DNA of 9,411 nt from a virus. Taxonomy: Duplodnaviria; Heunggongvirae; Uroviricota; Caudoviricetes. This document shows, in pieces, positions 1 through 6,571 of this stretch. The stretch lies in IMG/VR virus record IMGVR_UViG_2606217106_000011, positions 1 through 9,411 of that record. One strand, 5' to 3'. A model generated the notes under the pieces. It made no database searches, was not told where the DNA came from, and saw nothing but the letters and a program-made list of their open reading frames with translations. The position numbers were made by a program, and so were the translations under genes. Within the stretch, counting starts at the first letter, position 1. Each line of letters starts with the position of its first letter.

Positions 1-1
1 C

Positions 2-29
2 AAAAAAATCCCGCGCTGGGAGACGCGGG
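2..29 (-). terminator. Intrinsic-terminator-like hairpin, oriented for leftward (minus-strand) transcription
   Basis: On the + strand an A7 tract (2-8) precedes the inverted repeat CCCGCG (10-15) / CGCGGG (24-29) with an 8-nt loop. Read on the minus strand this is a GC stem followed by ATTTTTTTG. Close to the window edge; stability not computed. Confidence 0.3.
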
Positions 30-98
30 CGGCAAGGAATAAACAACAAAACGTGAAGTAATATTTCAGCTGGCGAATAATATCCGACAGTAATCACT

Positions 99-121
99 CT
101 GCGCAATAGCGCGGCCTTTTT
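99..121 (+). terminator. Intrinsic-terminator-like hairpin upstream of the esterase gene
   Basis: Stem CTGCGC (99-104) / GCGCGG (109-114) including one G-U pair, loop AATA, then CC plus T5 (117-121). Short stem; no folding energy computed. Confidence 0.3.
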
Positions 122-223
122 CGTATTGCGGGCTGTTGTCTATCTTCTGCCATTATCCTGTAACTTCCGGACTTCAGCCCGCTCCTCATTTTACTCACAA
201 TATTATCCAGGCCGGGAGGATTC

Positions 224-1450
224 ATGGCATTTAAACACTATGACGTGGTCAGGGCGGCGTCGCCGTCAGACCTTGCGGAGCGACTGACACAAAAACTGAA
301 GGAGGGGTGGCAGCCATTTGGCAGTCCGGTGGCCATCACGCCTTATACCCTGATGCAGGCCATTGCGGCGGAAGGTGATGTCACCACACCTGTGGTGGTG
401 AAGCCGTCGGATGGAGAAGGCGCAGTTATCAGCACCACCAGCAACTCGGAGTATTACTTTGTTGTTGCCCTGGCCGGGCAGTCAAACGGTATGGCGTATG
501 GTGAAGGGCTTCCGCTGCCGGAGACATATGACCGTCCGGACCCGCGCATTAAACAGCTGGCGCGTCGCAGCACTGTCACGCCGGGTGGTGCGTCCTGTAA
601 CTACAATGACATTATTCCTGCGGACCACTGCCTGCATGATGTTCAGGATTTGAGTAAGTTTTCACACCCGAAAGCCAGCGCAGCTCAGTATGGATGCGTG
701 GGGCAGGGATTACATATCGCGAAGAAATTGTTGCCGTTTATTCCGGCGAATGCCGGTATTCTTCTGGTTCCGTGCTGCCGTGGTGGTTCTGCATTTTTGG
801 CGGGCGATGAAGGTACCTTCAGCGAATCCACCGGCGCAAGCGAGACCTCGGCACGCTGGGGTGTAGATAAGCCACTGTACAAGGACCTGCTTACCCGTAC
901 TCAGGCCGCACTGAAGGCTAACCCTAAAAATATTCTGCTTGCAGTGGTCTGGATGCAGGGCGAGTTTGATTTGAAACAGGGTGCATACGCCACTCAGCCG
1001 GGGCTGTTTGATTCCATGGTGGAAAAATATCGTTCTGACCTGTCGGAATTCGGAGGTCAGTGTCTCGGGGGCTCTCCGTCATCGGTTCCCTGGATTTGTG
1101 GCGACACGACCTACTACTGGAAGCAGACTTATTCTTCGCAATACGATGCGGTGTATGGTGCATACAAGACGAAATCCGCAAAAAAAATCTTCTTTGTGCC
1201 GTTTAGACGGATGAAAACGGGCGAAATGTGGGTACCAACGAGCCGTCAGAAGATCCGGATGTTGCGGATATTGGGTATTACGGAGCCGGTGGTCGAACGG
1301 ACGCCAAAACCTGGACGACGGCCGACCGTAAAACGCATTTTGGATCATGGGCACGTCGTGGGATTATTTCCGACCGTCTGGCAACGGCGATTCTTGTGCA
1401 TGCCGGGAGAACCGCTGAATTCATTACCGGAAAACAGCCTGATACGGTGA
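224..1450 (+). CDS. nanS-p: Prophage NanS-p-like sialate 9-O-acetylesterase, N-terminal and catalytic part; frame lost near 1204-1220, so the 3' tail of this ORF is probably out-of-frame read-through
   Basis: ORF 224-1450 with SD GGGAGGA (214-220) before the ATG. The N-terminus (MAFKHYDVVRAASPSDLAERL...) resembles the DUF1737-type module of these esterases, and ALAGQSNGMAYGEG carries the GQSN block of SGNH/SASA esterases. Position upstream of S-R-Rz matches Stx-type lambdoid prophages. The final ~80 codons are arginine-rich and look non-native. Confidence 0.7.
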   Translation: MAFKHYDVVRAASPSDLAERLTQKLKEGWQPFGSPVAITPYTLMQAIAAEGDVTTPVVVKPSDGEGAVISTTSNSEYYFVVALAGQSNGMAYGEGLPLPETYDRPDPRIKQLARRSTVTPGGASCNYNDIIPADHCLHDVQDLSKFSHPKASAAQYGCVGQGLHIAKKLLPFIPANAGILLVPCCRGGSAFLAGDEGTFSESTGASETSARWGVDKPLYKDLLTRTQAALKANPKNILLAVVWMQGEFDLKQGAYATQPGLFDSMVEKYRSDLSEFGGQCLGGSPSSVPWICGDTTYYWKQTYSSQYDAVYGAYKTKSAKKIFFVPFRRMKTGEMWVPTSRQKIRMLRILGITEPVVERTPKPGRRPTVKRILDHGHVVGLFPTVWQRRFLCMPGEPLNSLPENSLIR

Positions 1451-2184
1451 AGCCCACCGGACCTTCCGGTGAAGGTACGGAGAGAGAGCCGGAAGCCCCG
1501 GTCAGTAACCGAACCCTGATGAGTCTGCTGGCGTCCGGCGAAGACCTGGCATCACAGGGCTGGCGCTATTATCACAAACCGGCGAGCGGAGACAATGTTA
1601 ACAAAAACATTGCTGAAGCGGTGGTCAGTGATGCGGGGGCTACGGGAGGTAAGGCCCTGCAACTGAATAAACCGGAAAACCACATCTGGTTTCTGGAGCA
1701 TGATGCAGCCGGACAGGGAGTGGAGTTACTGAAGAAGGGGGGACGTGTGAGCGTACGGTTTAAGTTGCCGGGTTCACTGGTGCCGAATCGGTTTGCCCTG
1801 GGCATTTACTGGCAGTTGTCGTCCCTGCCGGAGGGAGTGACGCTGGCAGAGGAAGGCAACGACATGCTGATGTCCTTCTTCCTGCAGACGGATGCGACGA
1901 ACCTGAACGCGATGTACCACAAGAAGCCGAATGCGAAGCTGGATACGTTCGGGGTCTTTGATAACGGATGGCACACACTGGCTTTTGAGTTTGCCGGAAA
2001 CAACAGCATTCAGGTGACGCCGGTACTGGATGAGAAACGGGGGACGCCGTTCACACTGGTGAAATCTCCGGCATCAGGGGCGGCGGACAAACTGCAACTG
2101 ACAGGCATATCAAAGGCGGCGACATATACGCTGCTGATTGACAGTGTGAAGGTGGAAGTGAACAACGCGGATGCCGCGGCATGA
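1207..2184 (+). pseudogene. C-terminal portion of the same NanS-p-like esterase, in a different frame (frameshifted remnant, or continuation if the shift is a sequencing error)
   Basis: This frame is open from 1207, directly after an in-frame TAG at 1204-1206, to the stop at 2182-2184. The translation (TDENGRNVGTNEPSEDPDVADIGYYGAGG...) looks protein-like. Span 224-2184 is 1961 nt, one nucleotide short of a multiple of three, consistent with a single-base deletion. Confidence 0.65.
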
Positions 2185-2319
2185 TAAAAAAAGCCGCCAG
2201 CGGCAGGAACGGAAGCTGGCGGAGGTAATCCCAATGGAGAATGTAAAGAAAAGATGCTTTCGTATATCGGTTTTTTAAATGAAAGCAGTTCTCATTGTCA
2301 ACCATAACGGTAAGAAACT

Positions 2320-2502
2320 ATGACATTTATTCATCAGGTGATGCTGTACTTCTGTACGGCGGTCTGTGTGCTGTATCTTCTTTCGGGTGGGTACAGGGCA
2401 GTGCGCGATTTCTGGCGCAGGCAGATTGATAAAAGGGCCGCAGAGAAAATCAGTGCCAGTCAGTCAGCCGGAACAAAACCCGAAGAGCCTCTCATTCCGT
2501 AG
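2320..2502 (+). CDS. Hypothetical small membrane protein (60 aa)
   Basis: ORF with ATG start and one hydrophobic segment (VMLYFCTAVCVLYLL) followed by a basic/polar tail. Weak SD. No motif recognised. Confidence 0.3.
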   Translation: MTFIHQVMLYFCTAVCVLYLLSGGYRAVRDFWRRQIDKRAAEKISASQSAGTKPEEPLIP

Positions 2503-2539
2503 CAACTTTCTTAACAACACCTTTCAACGAGAAAATACC

Positions 2540-2809
2540 ATGTCAGAAATAAAATCGCTGGTCACTGCTGAAGCAGTGAAGGAAGTCCTGCGCTCTGAAG
2601 AAGTCAGAAGCGCACTGAAACAGCAACTTCGGCAGAACCTTGAGGCGCGTCTTGATGCAGAAGTGGATGCCATTCTGGATGAACTGCTGGGCGCACCGAC
2701 TGTTCCGGAGCCGGAAGGCATTGCGGATGACAGTGCTGTTTCAGATGGCGTCGGGTCTCAGCCTGATGGTAGCAGTGAGCCTCAGCCTGACGGCGAAATG
2801 ATGATGTAA
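2540..2809 (+). CDS. Hypothetical acidic protein (89 aa)
   Basis: ATG at 2540, starting MSEIKSLVTAEAVKEVLRSEE; predicted helical N-terminal half and a D/E/P/S-rich acidic C-terminus. Weak SD (GAGAAA). The longer ORF-track version from 2366 has no better start signal. Confidence 0.45.
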   Translation: MSEIKSLVTAEAVKEVLRSEEVRSALKQQLRQNLEARLDAEVDAILDELLGAPTVPEPEGIADDSAVSDGVGSQPDGSSEPQPDGEMMM

Positions 2810-2884
2810 CCATGCGCAGGGGCTGTCGGTGTGAGCTGATGCCCCTCTTGTTGTTGTGAGCTTCCGGATTGCGGGAGACGGGGT

Positions 2885-3100
2885 ATGTACCAGATGGAAA
2901 AAATCACAACAGGTGTGTCATACACCACGTCAGCGGTGGGGACGGGCTACTGGTTCCTGCAGCTGCTGGACAGGGTTTCCCCGTCTCAGTGGGCGGCAAT
3001 AGGCGTACTGGGGAGTCTGCTGTTTGGTCTGCTGACGTACCTGACGAACCTGTATTTCAAAATCAGAGAGGACCGTCGTAAGGCGGCTCGGGGAGAGTAG
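2885..3100 (+). CDS. S: Class II holin, phage-21 S21-type pinholin with dual-start motif
   Basis: 71-aa product with close identity to the S21 pinholin as recalled ([23 protein letters not shown]...[22 protein letters not shown]). Two Met codons (M1, M4) as in the S21 antiholin/holin pair; two TM segments; SD GGGAGA (2873-2878). Confidence 0.9.
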
Positions 3101-3103
3101 ACG

Positions 3104-4096
3104 ATGAATAAAAAATATGAACTGGTTGTAAAAGGGATAAATCATTACCCGGATAAGATAGCTGTTACTGTGGCACTGGAAATTGGTGGGTATCCGCCAC
3201 TGTTGTTGCCAAATGTGGCGATTAGTCTTGACCGTACTGAAGGTGCCACGCTGGAGTTTTACGAAGCTGAGGCGAAAAAGCAGGCGAAGCAGTTTTTCAT
3301 GGATATTGCTGCCGGGTTATGTGAAGGGGATGAACCGTTGCCAGAAAAGCGCCCCATAATTTTAGAGGCGCAGGATGTGTTGATAACCTACAAAGGAAAG
3401 CTACCGGGAAGAATTACTGATGCTCTGAAGATGCCGCCGTCAACACTGCGGTCAGAAAAAGATGATATTGAATCACGCATTGAAAAACTGGAGTGCTGTG
3501 TTACTGAATTGAAAAAAAGCACCCCAACAAAAAATGAGGTGCTTGCAGCAGATGAAATGAAAGAAACTATTCTTGAATTAGCTGCGCGCCTGAACTGCGC
3601 TTCACTGTTGAAAGAGCATTTTCAGCAGCCTGAAAAAAAACGCCGCGATGAGCAGCAGTTTGCGGCGTTTTACGATTATTGCCGGAAAGTGATGAGCAGA
3701 AATCTCGCAGAGTGTTTCAGTATTCATAATGATAATTTCAGTGAGCTGGAATGGGAGTGTAACCGGCCATCCTTTGTTGTATCCGGTGATGGTGGGAAAA
3801 TAACCATCTCAGAAAATGGGAAAGTAACACCTCCATCGCACCAGCACAGTGAGGAGCTCATTGAATTTGCCATTGATTACCTGAAGAACAATAAAAAGCA
3901 GGGGCTGATGAAGCGCGTTGGCCGTTGCATGGGATATCTGCAGGTAGCTGCTGAGATTGAAGCGCTTGCCAGTGGTGCAGACAGGGATACTGCGGTGCGG
4001 GAGGTCCTTCTTCGTGATTTCAATACTCCGCCCTTTAAGAAAGAGCCTGATGGCTGGCTCCAGCCGGGGCTGAATTATCTCAAAGGGCGGATATAA
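3104..4096 (+). CDS. Hypothetical protein (330 aa), AT-rich insertion between holin and endolysin; function unknown
   Basis: Long uninterrupted ORF. ATG 3104 lies 3 nt after the holin stop and uses the SD GGGAGAG (3091-3097) inside the holin 3' end. Visibly lower GC than the flanking lysis genes (by eye). No Walker A, HExxH, HNH, lipobox or signal peptide seen; charged, partly coiled-coil-like middle region. Confidence 0.75.
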   Translation: MNKKYELVVKGINHYPDKIAVTVALEIGGYPPLLLPNVAISLDRTEGATLEFYEAEAKKQAKQFFMDIAAGLCEGDEPLPEKRPIILEAQDVLITYKGKLPGRITDALKMPPSTLRSEKDDIESRIEKLECCVTELKKSTPTKNEVLAADEMKETILELAARLNCASLLKEHFQQPEKKRRDEQQFAAFYDYCRKVMSRNLAECFSIHNDNFSELEWECNRPSFVVSGDGGKITISENGKVTPPSHQHSEELIEFAIDYLKNNKKQGLMKRVGRCMGYLQVAAEIEALASGADRDTAVREVLLRDFNTPPFKKEPDGWLQPGLNYLKGRI

Positions 4097-4102
4097 GTAC
4101 TG

Positions 4103-4417
4103 TTATCTGTTACCTGATAATTGTCTGAACAGGCGATCTTTTTGTGATTTGGCGTAATGATTATCCCATTCGCAATCAAGGTAACTTAATTCTTCATTTA
4201 ACCAGTCATCTATATTGTCTTTCAGGCGAAGGAGCAAGGTTGGTGTTAATGCTCCGGATATAATACTGAGAGTTGCAGTAGTGAGAGCTCCATACGGTTC
4301 AGCCTGAATGGCCTTTACTGCTTCGTGTTCTTGCGGGAGGAGTAAAAGGCATTCCGATTTTACCCGCTCATTTATGGCTTGCAGGTATAAATCATAATTA
4401 TGTTGATGGTTATGCAT
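4103..4417 (-). CDS. Hypothetical protein (104 aa), convergent partner of the 330-aa ORF; function unknown
   Basis: Minus-strand ORF starting at the ATG complementary to 4415-4417, with SD GAGGA 7 nt upstream on that strand. Its stop (4103-4105) lies 6 bp from the stop of the 3104-4096 gene. AT-rich like its neighbour. The longer ORF-track version (to 4669) overlaps the endolysin start and has no SD. Confidence 0.6.
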   Translation of the reverse strand: MHNHQHNYDLYLQAINERVKSECLLLLPQEHEAVKAIQAEPYGALTTATLSIISGALTPTLLLRLKDNIDDWLNEELSYLDCEWDNHYAKSQKDRLFRQLSGNR

Positions 4418-4545
4418 AGTTAATCCTCGACTGGAATTGTCAGATATATTTTCAGCCAGCAGATAAAACGCCAGTGCCCACCACTGGCAGGCTGAAGACT
4501 TAACATATCCAGGGGGCCGGAACCGATAAATCCTGATAAATATCC

Positions 4546-5079
4546 ATGAACGCAAAAATCCGATACGGCCTGTCGGCTGCCGTTCTGGCGCTGATTGGTG
4601 CAGGGGCGTCTGCGCCTGAAATCCTCGACCAGTTTCTTGACGAAAAAGAAGGCAACCACACCACGGCATACCGTGATGGTGCGGGTATCTGGACCATCTG
4701 CCGTGGTGCCATCATGGTGGATGGCAAACCTGTCGTTCCGGGCATGAAGTTGTCGAAGGAAAAATGCGACCAGGTTAACGCCATTGAGCGTGATAAAGCG
4801 CTGGCGTGGGTGGAGAAAAACATCAGAGTGCCGCTGACCGAACCCCAGAAAGCGGGGATCGCGTCATTCTGTCCGTACAACATTGGTCCCGGTAAGTGTT
4901 TCCCGTCGACGTTTTACAGACGAATTAATGCAGGTGATCGCAGGGGAGCATGCGAAGCGATTCGCTGGTGGATTAAGGACGGTGGCAGAGACTGCCGTAT
5001 TCGCTCAAACAACTGTTACGGTCAGGTATCCCGTCGCGACCAGGAGAGTGCGCTGGCGTGCTGGGGAATTGACAGATAA
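4546..5079 (+). CDS. R: SAR endolysin (T4-lysozyme-like muramidase with N-terminal signal-anchor-release domain), R21-like
   Basis: N-terminal Gly/Ala-rich weakly hydrophobic segment (YGLSAAVLALIGAGASAP), then the catalytic E-x8-D-x5-T arrangement in EGNHTTAYRDGAGIWTICRG. Sits in the lysis cassette with pinholin and Rz/Rz1. No recognisable SD directly upstream. Confidence 0.9.
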   Translation: MNAKIRYGLSAAVLALIGAGASAPEILDQFLDEKEGNHTTAYRDGAGIWTICRGAIMVDGKPVVPGMKLSKEKCDQVNAIERDKALAWVEKNIRVPLTEPQKAGIASFCPYNIGPGKCFPSTFYRRINAGDRRGACEAIRWWIKDGGRDCRIRSNNCYGQVSRRDQESALACWGIDR

Positions 5080-5169
5080 GCAGAATATTTTGCTGAAAAA
5101 TGCGGTTTGCTCACACGGACGGATAACACGAAATCCTGCGAACTGACAAAAACTAAGTGAATAAAAGTA

Positions 5170-5210
5170 AAAACCCCGTTTGTTGGCTGCAAGCGGGGTT
5201 TTGTGTTTCT
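5170..5210 (+). terminator. Intrinsic-terminator-like hairpin (possibly bidirectional) between R and the small-peptide/Rz genes
   Basis: Stem CCCCGTTTG (5174-5182) / CAAGCGGGG (5190-5198), 9 bp with one G-U pair and a 7-nt loop, followed by TTTTGTGTTTCT (5199-5210) and preceded by an A-rich tract. Confidence 0.5.
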
Positions 5211-5235
5211 GACCTTGGATAAGGCAAGGGAGAAC

Positions 5236-5418
5236 ATGGAAAAGTATAAACGAATTCTGTTGAGGTTGACTATGAAAAACGGCCTTGAACTGAAAGCGCC
5301 AGTAACTGATGACATCAGCAGAGCGCTGGCTTTTGCTATTAAGTGGGTGGCGGTTGGTATCGCTGTGTCTCCGATACTGTATGGGCTGGCAAAACTGGTC
5401 ATTGCGCTGAAATCGTGA
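5236..5418 (+). CDS. Hypothetical small membrane protein (60 aa)
   Basis: ATG 5236 preceded by SD AGGGAGA. The C-terminal half is a hydrophobic helix (ALAFAIKWVAVGIAVSPILYGLAKLVIAL). Paralogous to the following 28-aa ORF. Confidence 0.4.
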   Translation: MEKYKRILLRLTMKNGLELKAPVTDDISRALAFAIKWVAVGIAVSPILYGLAKLVIALKS

Positions 5419-5429
5419 ACTTTAAAAAG

Positions 5430-5516
5430 ATGAGTGCTGAACTTATTCGGGCAATGGCATTTGCCATTCGTATTGTGGCCATTGCTGTTCTGGTCTGGGC
5501 AATCCGTTGGTGGTGA
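5430..5516 (+). CDS. Hypothetical hydrophobic peptide (28 aa), paralogue of the preceding ORF
   Basis: ATG 5430 to TGA 5514-5516, product [28 protein letters not shown]. Aligns with residues ~38-55 of the 5236-5418 product (RALAFAIKWVAVGIAV vs [16 protein letters not shown]). Its stop is 1 nt before the Rz ATG (5518). Below the ORF-track size cutoff; weak SD. Confidence 0.3.
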
Positions 5517-5517
5517 T

Positions 5518-5985
5518 ATGAACCGTGTTCTGTGTGTGGTGATTATTGTCCTGCTGGTAGCCTGTGGTGTGCTTAGTCTGGGGCTGAATCATTACCGCGA
5601 TAACGCCATCACCTACAAAGCGCAGCGCGATAAAAAAGCCAGAGAGCTGGAGCTGGCAAACACAACCATTACTGACATGCAGCAGCGTCAGCGTGATGTT
5701 GCTGCGCTGGATGAAAAATACACAAAGGAGTTAGCCGATGCGAGAGCTGAAAATGAAACTCTGCGCGCTGACGTTGCCGCTGGTCGCCGCAGCCTGCGTA
5801 TCAACGCCACCTGTCCAGGTTCCGTGCGTGAAGCCACCGGCACCGCCCGCGTGGATAATGCAACCGGCCCCCGACTGGCAGACACCGCTGAACGGGATTA
5901 TTTCACCCTCAGAGAACGGTTGATGACAATGCAGAAGCAACTGGAAGGGGCGCAGGACTATATCCGCACTCAGTGTATTAACTAG
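5518..5985 (+). CDS. Rz: Rz i-spanin (inner-membrane spanin subunit)
   Basis: Strong similarity to lambda Rz as recalled ([61 protein letters not shown]...[27 protein letters not shown]). N-terminal TM helix. ATG 5518 chosen over the GTG-extended ORF-track start at 5434. Confidence 0.9.
5738..5923 (+). CDS. Rz1: Rz1 o-spanin (outer-membrane lipoprotein spanin subunit), embedded in Rz in another frame
   Basis: Embedded ORF with SD AAGGAG (5725-5730); lipoprotein signal ending in Cys (LPLVAAAC) and the proline-rich block [30 protein letters not shown], as in lambda Rz1. Confidence 0.85.
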
Positions 5986-6008
5986 TATTTTTGTTATCCG
6001 GAGAATGC

Positions 6009-6233
6009 ATGAAGAAATTACTGGTAACCGTAAAGCCTTTTCAGGGAACAATTCCGTTCCGTATTTTGCAGCGTGGTCGTGTTCTTGTTGAAGGTTCGTT
6101 CAGTGGTAAATGTACGCAATTACACTCCCGGACCTTTCAGGTGAATGCCACGAATGAAGAGCTAACCGTTGAGTGTACGATGAATGCCGCTAAATGCCGC
6201 ATGGTATCCGCTGCATTACAGCCAGTGTCTTGA
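6009..6233 (+). CDS. Hypothetical protein (74 aa)
   Basis: ATG 6009 with SD GGAGA 5 nt upstream, immediately after the Rz stop. No motif recognised; not lambda Bor. Confidence 0.45.
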   Translation: MKKLLVTVKPFQGTIPFRILQRGRVLVEGSFSGKCTQLHSRTFQVNATNEELTVECTMNAAKCRMVSAALQPVS

Positions 6234-6267
6234 GCGACCTTATTAACCATGCGCGGTATTGTCGCCG

Positions 6268-6380
6268 TATCCCCGCATTAACAGAGACCGCAGCCCGACC
6301 GGGAGACTCCTCTGCGCGAGTGTGCGGGGATAATCAAAAACGATACACACCGGGGTTTACCGCGTTAACGGAGCGCGGCG
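6268..6380. repeat. Structured non-coding segment: 10-bp perfect inverted repeat plus a direct-repeat motif CCGC(A/G)TTAAC(A/G)GAG
   Basis: TATCCCCGCA (6268-6277) is the exact reverse complement of TGCGGGGATA (6323-6332), 45 bp apart. CCGCATTAACAGAG (6273-6286) recurs as CCGCGTTAACGGAG (6360-6373). No convincing ORF in this ~330-bp gap; overlapping ORF-track entries look like noise. Confidence 0.4.
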
Positions 6381-6571
6381 TTGTCCCCTCATGGTCGCTG
6401 GTCCGGTGCGATGGTGGAAGAAACCGGACGATGTGTTACCTCGCAAGCTCTGTTATGTCATGTGTCTGATTTGTGATTTAAGTCGGATAATTGTCGTTGC
6501 CATTAAGCAGAGGATTGATGACCGACAGGGTGGCATTGTTAGAATAAGACGTATTCTTATCTGTGCCGGGA

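Follow-up and report, generated by a model that had tools for sequence, protein, structure and literature searches.

The R–Rz gap described here lies in a window of 9,411 nucleotides (nt), the whole stretch of DNA that was analyzed (positions 1 to 9,411 of the IMG/VR virus record IMGVR_UViG_2606217106_000011), which gene order, the list of open reading frames (ORFs) and Pfam matches place in the late region of an Escherichia coli-type lambdoid prophage. The gap was bordered on the left by R (4546–5079, plus strand), encoding a lysozyme with an N-terminal hydrophobic segment resembling a signal-arrest-release (SAR) domain (Pfam Phage_lysozyme, 3.3e-24), and on the right by the i-spanin gene Rz (5518–5985, plus strand; Pfam Phage_lysis, 1.6e-50), in which Rz1 was embedded (5738–5923, plus strand). 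It measured 438 nt (5080–5517); an earlier reading of the same letters (the original prediction) had given about 440 bp, and its placement of the features was reproduced throughout. In plus-strand order the gap contained a spacer after the R stop codon (5080–5169), a hairpin with a T-run resembling an intrinsic terminator (5170–5210), a short leader (5211–5235), an ORF of 60 amino acids (aa) (ORF60, 5236–5418) and an ORF of 28 aa (ORF28, 5430–5516), while a candidate sigma-70-like promoter was found by consensus scan on the minus strand inside ORF60 (5243–5272). R and Rz had been taken to be normally adjacent. This holds for the K-12 prophage Qin, where rrrQ overlaps rzpQ and there is no gap, so that the cassette is variably present between otherwise adjacent genes, but an occupied gap proved common elsewhere, and DNA matching the gap was present in 2085 of 5426 complete E. 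coli genomes. The statements on regulation made below rest on consensus matches and comparative anatomy.

Sequence comparison gave strong evidence that ORF60 encodes a translated protein. Among 19 distinct alleles from IMG/VR prophage loci, 3, 4 and 20 sites varied at codon positions 1, 2 and 3, respectively, and the ratio of non-synonymous to synonymous polymorphism (pN/pS) was 0.13 in the frame of the ORF versus 1.2 and 2.3 in the other two frames, indicating purifying selection. ORF60 matched three PHROG profiles, all of unknown function (phrog_1115 at 6.6e-42, phrog_4493 at 3.5e-29, and phrog_3246 at 8.6e-19), and had no match in Pfam, NCBIfam, PADLOC or the sequences of the PDB. Its 119 database homologues were all from Escherichia or Salmonella and all unnamed, and the family appears narrow because a profile search of 1.84 billion representative proteins recovered only 21 clusters. 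No paper mentioning these peptides was found, every copy being annotated as hypothetical, and the peptide strings were absent from the supplements of a ribosome-profiling paper on small genes of strain Sakai.

Members of the family shared a basic N-terminal segment, x-Y-K-R-I-L-x-R-L-T (more generally x-Y-K/R-K/R-hydrophobic-R-L-x). Next came an invariant internal Met (in MKNG, MKDG or MKG) and, beyond a short loop, a single hydrophobic helix with -LK(S) or -RWW at its end. ORF60 represents the full-length form of what is termed here the C type, with a basic segment in its first 12 residues, Met13 (codon at 5272), the loop and a C-terminal transmembrane helix. An AlphaFold2 model had a weak helix at residues 3–14 and a confident one at residues 23–59 (predicted local distance difference test score, 90–94), and the best 19-residue Kyte–Doolittle windows scored 2.04 for ORF60 and 2.21 for ORF28. 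Together with PHROG profiles common to both ORFs, these values bear out the proposal that the two are single-helix membrane peptides of one family. Hydropathy and charge fit an inner-membrane protein for ORF60, which would have its N-terminus in the cytoplasm and be anchored at its C-terminus.

Two in-frame starts were evident in ORF60. The long-form ATG at 5236 was preceded by AAGGGAG at 5226–5232, in a plus-strand leader that leaves no space for a sigma-70 promoter and in which the motif CAAGGRA is common to the window and distant family members; the internal ATG was preceded by GAGG at 5262–5265, made in the window with the rare codon AGG. GAGG or GGAGG stood 5–6 nt before the internal ATG in seven of eight genomic contexts of the family, and about 10 nt before it in the long form of the D type described below. 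Two divergent members (loci L208 and L214) kept the motif though the residues encoded there differ (V-E-A-N versus L-R-L-T). Gene callers often pick the internal start, hence the many 48-aa entries among the homologues. The 12–18 codons upstream of it nevertheless stay open, vary by whole codons and encode conservative residues, and for this reason both a long and a short product are plausible.

ORF28 consisted of a transmembrane helix ending in RWW. It began about nine residues before the AFAI core shared with ORF60 and was devoid of the conserved N-terminal 20-odd residues and of the invariant Met. The hydrophobic core common to the two ORFs, noticed in the original prediction, reflects real homology, as ORF60 and ORF28 aligned by BLASTP at E = 1e-4 and ORF28 matched phrog_4493 at 3.8e-6 and phrog_3246 at 9.2e-5. 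A full-length form of the same peptide, the D type, is 50 aa long, matches ORF60 at 45% of residues in a 49-aa alignment (E = 8e-15), and is the sole gap occupant in O157:H7 and other strains. Judged by these alignments, ORF28 is the helix-only remainder of the D type and a diverged paralogue of ORF60. In the loci where the long D form occupies a gap of 335 nt (L108 and others), an 8-codon mini-ORF, MGREVLSL, with a good Shine-Dalgarno motif was also seen, its TGA overlapping the GTG start of the 50-aa form (GTGA); the NCBI annotation of these loci calls a 37-aa form from the internal ATG instead.

Comparison of prophages revealed the R–Rz gap as a mosaic hotspot with at least six types of small single-helix peptide genes, as well as antirepressor and methylase genes. 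Four of these types, A, B, E and F, measure 31–50 aa and likewise have one helix each; B was kept across divergent DNA, including Salmonella-type loci, while E and F were two further small membrane ORFs in one gap type. The 153 loci holding both R and Rz had 21 different gap lengths and at least seven architectures, the main ones being C-B (67 loci), A-B-C-D (39), the long D form alone (27) and C-D (12), and some gaps carried inserted genes for antirepressor-like proteins (189–231 aa) or Dam-like methylases. DNA resembling ORF60 was present in 1550 and DNA resembling ORF28 in 1145 of the 5426 complete E. coli genomes, carriers including O157:H7 and ST131-type strains. The exact arrangement of the window was seen only rarely, in two complete E. 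coli genomes and a handful of IMG/VR contigs. Only 14 of 50,697 phage records held the family, none of them a model phage, and a scan of species-representative genomes gave no confirmed locus.

Positions 5080–5419 of the window matched the C-B gap type at 97.4%, and positions 5300–5520 matched the A-B-C-D type at 97.7%. Because the two parts of the gap match two different gap types, the arrangement in the window is, on these identities, explained by a crossover inside the C gene; hybrid proteins joining C and D halves at the AFAI core were also present in databases. The original prediction had read the two ORFs as a local duplication. A recent tandem duplication that yielded two holin or antiholin modulators specific to the lysis cassette would account for the core motif common to both ORFs and for the position of both between R and Rz, but it is very improbable: the two cores were identical at only 41 of 78 nt (53%), which contradicts such an origin, each type occurred without the other in many prophages, and the window arrangement is recombinant. 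Family members also lie outside lysis cassettes and beside three endolysin types (see below). Neither a holin family nor any other entry of Pfam or NCBIfam matched ORF60, ORF28 or the peptides A and B, and homology of the gap peptides to spanins, holins or SAR domains, which was considered, had no support in the sequences.

The junction with Rz was as tight as had been predicted, with the ORF28 stop codon (TGA) at 5514–5516 and the Rz start codon (ATG) at 5518, joined as GGTGGTGATATG. The D type always ends 1 nt before the Rz ATG within this string, and in related loci the stop of B overlaps the GTG of a short C form (GTGA) and the stop of F overlaps the ATG of D (ATGA). From the 1-nt spacing and these overlaps, the packing appears suited to translational coupling to Rz, as had been suggested. 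No Shine-Dalgarno motif was found before ORF28. Since it lacks this motif and starts 11 nt past the ORF60 stop, re-initiation after ORF60 would be the most likely route of its translation, and ORF28 may serve only as a translational bridge.

The status of ORF28 itself was less clear-cut. It could be recombination debris, as could short copies generally, with the frame kept for the sake of the Rz ribosome-binding site or because of recent spread. The truncated N-terminus and missing Shine-Dalgarno motif fit such an origin, as do the frameshifted relatives and a copy that the NCBI annotation of one genome flags as an incomplete pseudogene; moreover, only three sites of ORF28 varied within the A-B-C-D gap type, too few to judge selection on the short form. 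Debris is nonetheless unlikely. The D region had 10, 5 and 17 variable sites at the three codon positions of 10 alleles and a pN/pS of 0.32, versus 0.86 and 1.41 in the other frames, a signal that comes partly from full-length relatives. The ATG of ORF28 is conserved, overlapping an upstream stop as ATGA in another gap type, and the helix and its RWW end are nearly invariant across otherwise diverged members.

The hairpin after R had a stem of 14 bp (5170–5202), six of them G-C pairs, closed by a loop of 5 nt, with TTTTGTGTTT directly downstream. Its folding energy was −21.6 kcal/mol, compared with a mean of −10.9 for shuffled sequences (z = −4.5; 0 of 200 shuffles equaled it), in line with the strong hairpin and T-run that had been proposed at 5170–5210, and the stem was also picked up by a consensus terminator scan. 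An A-run preceding the stem supplies a U-run on the minus strand (TTTTTACTTTTATT), so that the structure is terminator-like on both strands. The sole match in an Rfam scan of the whole window at E values up to 1 was a sub-threshold rimP-leader, which corresponds to this hairpin read on the minus strand.

Two independent lines of comparison indicate that the post-R hairpin is a selected feature. Downstream of R, the conserved string AAGTGAATAAA led directly into one of three unrelated hairpins, depending on the prophage; all three occupy the same position, fold at about −22 kcal/mol and have a T-rich run after the stem. Secondly, a terminator-like hairpin ended 30–45 nt before the long-form start of the family gene in all eight genomic contexts. 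Under a strict hairpin rule, for which chance was about 0.05 per context, seven of the eight passed with spacings of 30–40 nt; in the eighth (L210) the hairpin was seen by RNAfold, about 45 nt upstream with the spacing read by eye, and the eight contexts are related by descent and not fully independent. In the window, 33 nt separate the end of the stem at 5202 (RNAfold) from the ORF60 ATG at 5236. As this spacing was kept in eight contexts, hairpin and gene appear to move together. The family-linked stems differed by paired changes (AACCCCG/CGGGGTT, AAGCCCC/GGGGCTT, and ACGCCCG/CGGGCGT, by eye), and a formal pair count on a MAFFT alignment was weakly positive (0.079 versus 0.045, reached by 7 of 500 shuffles), its weakness being due to shifts in alignment register. 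An A-run stood upstream of every family-linked hairpin, making each bidirectional.

The spacer between R and the hairpin had conserved ends, an A-run at its 3′ end and a hypervariable patch of about 20 nt (5100–5120) that differed strongly between prophages among 47 distinct spacer sequences compared. The flanks of the patch were nearly fixed (GCAGAATATTTTGCTGAAAAATG ... GGATAACACGAAATCCTGCGAACTGG), and some of its variants were palindromic (CGTTGGCCAACG). A small RNA (sRNA) from the 3′ untranslated region of R, located in this 90-nt spacer, was considered and rejected, as RNAalifold detected no covariation outside the terminator in 20 variants (covariation term, −0.17).

The family was not confined to lysis cassettes. 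Divergent members followed tail-fiber genes, together with DUF4376 genes in L208 and L214 and with assembly genes in L211 and in L215, which is a P2-like phage. In L213 the family gene came after the gene for the major capsid protein, in L210 it preceded the portal gene, and in L212 it lay upstream of tail genes, among them one for a distal-tail (Dit-like) protein. The originally predicted link specific to lysis cassettes was therefore not upheld, yet the neighbors in every context were late genes on the same strand as the family gene. The three endolysin types adjoined by family members and the sites far from lysis genes argue against a partner dedicated to the S21/SAR-endolysin system; a general membrane or lysis-timing role may still apply.

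Several of these loci had further peculiarities. Tandem paralogues were observed in the metagenomic phages of L210 (325–737), L213 (2937–3400) and L214 (2890–3310). In L210, two nucleotides separate the second copy, whose product ends in AAIRWW, from the start of the following gene, which probably encodes the portal protein. The hairpin–gene unit of L213 recurs in tandem after the capsid gene. Direct repeats of a double terminator lie on either side of the gene in L214, and the stems of these repeats differ by a compensatory pair. In L050 (1825–2022), L051 (1692–1874) and L215 (3150–3356), a lipoprotein gene of 60–68 aa with the lipobox LVGC or LAGC directly follows the family gene, or the family gene plus B, in place of Rz/Rz1, often with an overlap or a spacing of 1 nt.

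The scattered distribution raises the question of an ordinary moron, that is, a membrane protein expressed in the lysogen for superinfection exclusion or envelope change, whose position among lysis genes is incidental. Such a gene would be expected to have a variable presence in a mosaic gap and to occupy classic moron sites, and the family does so after tail-fiber genes and at a prophage end; terminators also lie on both sides of the gene in L208, L213 and L214, with the direct repeats in L214. This explanation is quite unlikely. Only 30–45 nt are available between hairpin and start and no plus-strand promoter consensus was found there, and because no promoter is visible, a lysogen-expressed moron becomes less likely. 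The cassette is also chained to Rz or to the downstream lipoprotein gene with no terminator between, and PADLOC gave no match.

The only promoter-like match of the consensus scan between 4400 and 6400 was on the minus strand, with a −35 element TAGTCA (5272–5267), an 18-nt spacer and a −10 element TATACT (5248–5243). Shuffled sequences gave 1.9 matches per 2-kb window region and 0.2–0.8 per region of 420–490 nt at five other loci. The homologous site was present in all six contexts scanned and was the sole match in five, L215 having one extra plus-strand match downstream of the family gene. Its −10 element is TATACT or TATAAT, the complement of the x-Tyr-Lys codons, and its −35 element lies over the internal ATG. 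No plus-strand promoter-like site was found between the R stop and Rz in the window, nor upstream of the gene in any scanned context. If active, the minus-strand site would direct synthesis of an antisense transcript (about 74 nt, 5236 to about 5163) that would be complementary to the ribosome-binding site of ORF60 and would stop at the bidirectional hairpin. In its predicted fold, a small stem and a U-tailed terminator accompany the anti-Shine-Dalgarno stretch CUCCCUU.

These features suggest an alternative in which the gap holds an antisense-guarded, toxin-like module resembling type I toxin–antitoxin systems and the hairpin serves mainly to end the minus-strand RNA. The RNA, starting at about 5236, would pair with the ORF60 ribosome-binding site, so that a membrane-toxic peptide would stay untranslated until late transcription swamps the RNA. 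The minus-strand site recurs in 6/6 scanned contexts as the only or nearly the only match; in L208 and L214 its −35 element differs in sequence and in the residues encoded and still passes the scan; and every hairpin is bidirectional through its upstream A-run. Genes that have otherwise diverged retain TATAAACGAAT and the rare codons CGA and AGG, and the predicted RNA carries CUCCCUU, stem, terminator and U-tail. Type I toxins typically come as tandem paralogues with a narrow taxonomic range, and the PasB locus discussed below offers a verified precedent with an analogous layout. We regard this alternative as possible though not probable. The −35 elements are weak (4/6 positions), and the −10 element falls on the conserved Tyr-Lys codons, so that protein constraint could account for its conservation. 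Synonymous variation in codons 1–13 of the E. coli alleles was not visibly depleted, and no separate promoter for a toxin mRNA was found. The scan covered six of the eight contexts, those other than L210 and L213; by eye, the −10 element in L213 is poor, and L210 has a plausible one (TACAAT) with no −35 element at a workable spacing. Rfam gave no match above noise. In addition, gaps of the A-B-C-D and antirepressor types retained the hairpin after R although no minus-strand promoter-like site lay nearby, which argues that this hairpin has a role independent of the antisense promoter.

Published RNA data were also compared with the locus. In a table of Hfq peaks obtained from O157 Sakai by cross-linking and analysis of cDNA, no peak fell in the two R–Rz gaps that could be placed, neither of which was confirmed to hold a family member; the gap of Sp9 contained an antirepressor gene and a small ORF, and the Sp6 sequence ended inside R, making the test a weak one. 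Known prophage sRNAs were rejected as counterparts. The core motif of AsxR/AgvB-type anti-sRNAs was absent from the window; EcOnc12 (the nearest peak, 75 nt beyond Rz), EcOnc33 (inside the esterase gene, at its 3′ end) and EcOnc05, EcOnc08 and EcOnc21 (at a tRNA and moron site) lie outside R–Rz gaps; and PasA and PasC map between esterase and holin genes, with PasD nearby, none of them in an R–Rz gap. EcOnc11 and EcOnc12, both abundant Hfq-bound peaks, were each situated about 5.0 kb downstream of an anti-sRNA (AgvB1 and EcOnc03), and EcOnc10, a peak of similar size, is probably the Sp12 counterpart. EcOnc12 corresponds to L216 2523–2570 (Sakai 1779522–1779569), on the 3′ side of a DUF3950 (YnfO-like) gene of the minus strand; in the window, the equivalent position would fall around 7000.

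The explanation we favor, with a probability of roughly 45%, is that the gap is a promoter-less cassette of the phage late operon. ORF60 would be a small inner-membrane protein with a basic cytoplasmic N-terminus and a single C-terminal helix, beside which recombination within the shared core would have placed the diverged, N-terminally shortened ORF28. The hairpin would be an intrinsic terminator that travels with the gene and, in the lysogen, halts stray transcription from the S–R side. After induction, Q-modified RNA polymerase would pass the hairpin, so that the peptides would be produced jointly with Rz/Rz1 and the structural proteins; translation would run as a chain from ORF60 (perhaps in two forms) through ORF28 to Rz, the 3′ end of ORF28 carrying the Rz ribosome-binding sequence and the stop–start junction by which ribosomes would be passed on to Rz. 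As to its role, a plausible guess is a late membrane-active accessory protein that acts on lysis timing or the envelope and would be harmful if made early.

Several observations weigh against a promoter-less late cassette. The bidirectional hairpin and the conserved minus-strand site within the gene are unexplained by a simple insulator, and the occurrence of the family beyond lysis cassettes weakens a role specific to lysis. P2 late genes are not known to be expressed through Q-type antitermination, and since one context is the P2-like L215, read-through of the hairpin by Q cannot be the general route of expression. Frameshifted copies of neighboring small ORFs occur in several prophages, and ORF28 adds its missing Shine-Dalgarno motif and its scarcity of variable sites. 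The prophage itself is probably defective because its large terminase ORF (region 8494–9221) is interrupted by a stop at 8970, 158 aa into the protein, the remainder being in a different frame (8967–9221); its esterase gene is also apparently split.

The antisense lock described above is the main rival of the late-operon cassette and is at the same time compatible with it, as a possible second lock. A combined model, in which hairpin and gene form a mobile unit for a membrane-toxic peptide under a double lock, is unlikely. In such a unit the terminator would block sense transcription that is not antiterminated, the same hairpin would end a constitutive antisense RNA masking the long-form ribosome-binding site, and the 60-aa and 48-aa products would differ in activity, two in-frame products being found also in holin/antiholin pairs.

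Elsewhere in the window, the gene order was that of a lambdoid late region. A sialate O-acetylesterase gene, apparently split, occupied 224–1450 and 1228–2184 (ORF list and domain matches). The split looks like a frameshift, with DUF1737 and SASA domains in the first ORF and DUF6645 in the second, overlapping one; in the close relative L004, DUF6645 lies within one coding sequence of about 645 aa (1,935 nt). DUF1378 and DUF826 genes, recognized from domain matches, followed the esterase gene and preceded the cassette's own holin gene, of the S21-type class II (2885–3100; Pfam and NCBIfam). The next gene (3104–4096) encoded a DUF1327 (YdfR-like) protein of 330 aa, compared with 103–213 aa in K-12 Qin and related prophages, with the domain match limited to residues 1–100. 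Between it and R lay a minus-strand ORF (4103–4489) that had no Pfam match; a minus-strand terminator-like hairpin (4489–4469) stood just upstream of its likely start, so that the layout of hairpin then gene is repeated here on the opposite strand. Rz was followed by an 80-aa ORF, a TonB_C lipoprotein gene, a DUF3950 gene, an HNH endonuclease gene and the terminase subunit genes. Two of these, at 5991–6233 and 6563–6904, are probably further morons: one is the 80-aa ORF, a homologue of which follows the lipoprotein gene in a Salmonella-type locus (L050 2062–2409), and the other encodes a 113-aa protein that combines a TonB_C domain with an N-terminus resembling a lipobox (LVMGC).

ORF60-like DNA occurs in about a quarter of E. 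coli genomes, and a double-lock module, if real, would be previously undescribed and a phage late-operon counterpart of type I toxin–antitoxin modules. If the peptides alter lysis timing or membrane integrity, phage release would be affected, and in Shiga toxin prophages with related gaps toxin release as well. An antisense lock, if confirmed, would add a class of prophage small RNAs and toxin-like peptides overlooked by standard annotation. The R–Rz junction also offers a clear and easily sampled case of small-gene shuffling by recombination in short conserved cores and at terminator hairpins.

A typical moron has its own promoter and is expressed in the lysogen. Morons were defined for HK97 and HK022 by Juhala, Hendrix and colleagues (cited in PMC4104026). 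Like lambdoid morons, the cassette is extra DNA between otherwise adjacent genes, variable, mosaic, bounded by a terminator, set in a Q-dependent late operon and, as a family, found at classic moron sites. Unlike them, it has no detectable plus-strand promoter, its terminator lies upstream at a fixed 30–45 nt, and it is fused to the start of Rz.

A matching layout was seen at the PasB locus of enteropathogenic E. coli E2348/69 (Pearl Mizrahi et al., 2021, PMC8550237; Zhu, Shabalina and Storz, 2026, bioRxiv 10.64898/2026.05.13.724894). PasB is an RNA of 83 nt on the minus strand between the tail genes I and J, ending at a hairpin just after gene I. It is antisense to an unannotated plus-strand ORF of 22 aa (MKINVKELFLLLGQKNTNAAKL; L219 2262–2372, E2348/69 1466261–1466371), which starts 5 nt after the hairpin between genes I and J. 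The two loci have in common a gap in a lambdoid late operon, a hairpin after a late gene, a short plus-strand ORF and an RNA that starts, or would start, inside that ORF. However, they share no sequence similarity, the 22-aa ORF is not hydrophobic, and PasB is a verified Hfq-dependent trans-acting sRNA, whereas the window RNA is predicted from a promoter consensus.

Type I toxin–antitoxin systems (Hok/Sok, Ibs/Sib, Zor/Orz, TisB/IstR) involve hydrophobic single-helix peptides of ≤60 aa, often in tandem, on prophages and with a narrow host range. The window peptides, at 60 and 28 aa with a single helix each, resemble them, as would a cis-antisense RNA over the ribosome-binding site. In contrast, the window matched no known toxin or antitoxin RNA family and has neither a toxin promoter nor a long folded leader, the gene sits within a phage late operon whose orientation it shares, and its peptide is a putative toxin.

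Small accessory lysis proteins include P2 LysA, encoded between the endolysin gene K and the spanin gene lysB, and the antiholins S107 of lambda and S71 of phage 21. Another is the releasin gp25 of phage Mu (PMC9239132). The gap peptides are similarly small membrane proteins encoded between endolysin and spanin genes and would be co-expressed late, but no homology was found, ORF60 has one C-terminal helix where the accessory proteins have N-terminal or multiple ones, and its family also occurs far from lysis genes. The candidate pair of in-frame starts in ORF60, the earlier of which would add a basic N-terminal extension, recalls dual-start holin/antiholin genes, although the starts are 12 codons apart instead of 2–3.

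Finally, P22 sar is a short phage antisense RNA, proven experimentally, that acts on ant, starts just inside a gene and covers its ribosome-binding site. While sar belongs to the immI region with other genes and the RNA of the window is a prediction, both would be antisense RNAs that start within a gene and extend over its ribosome-binding site.

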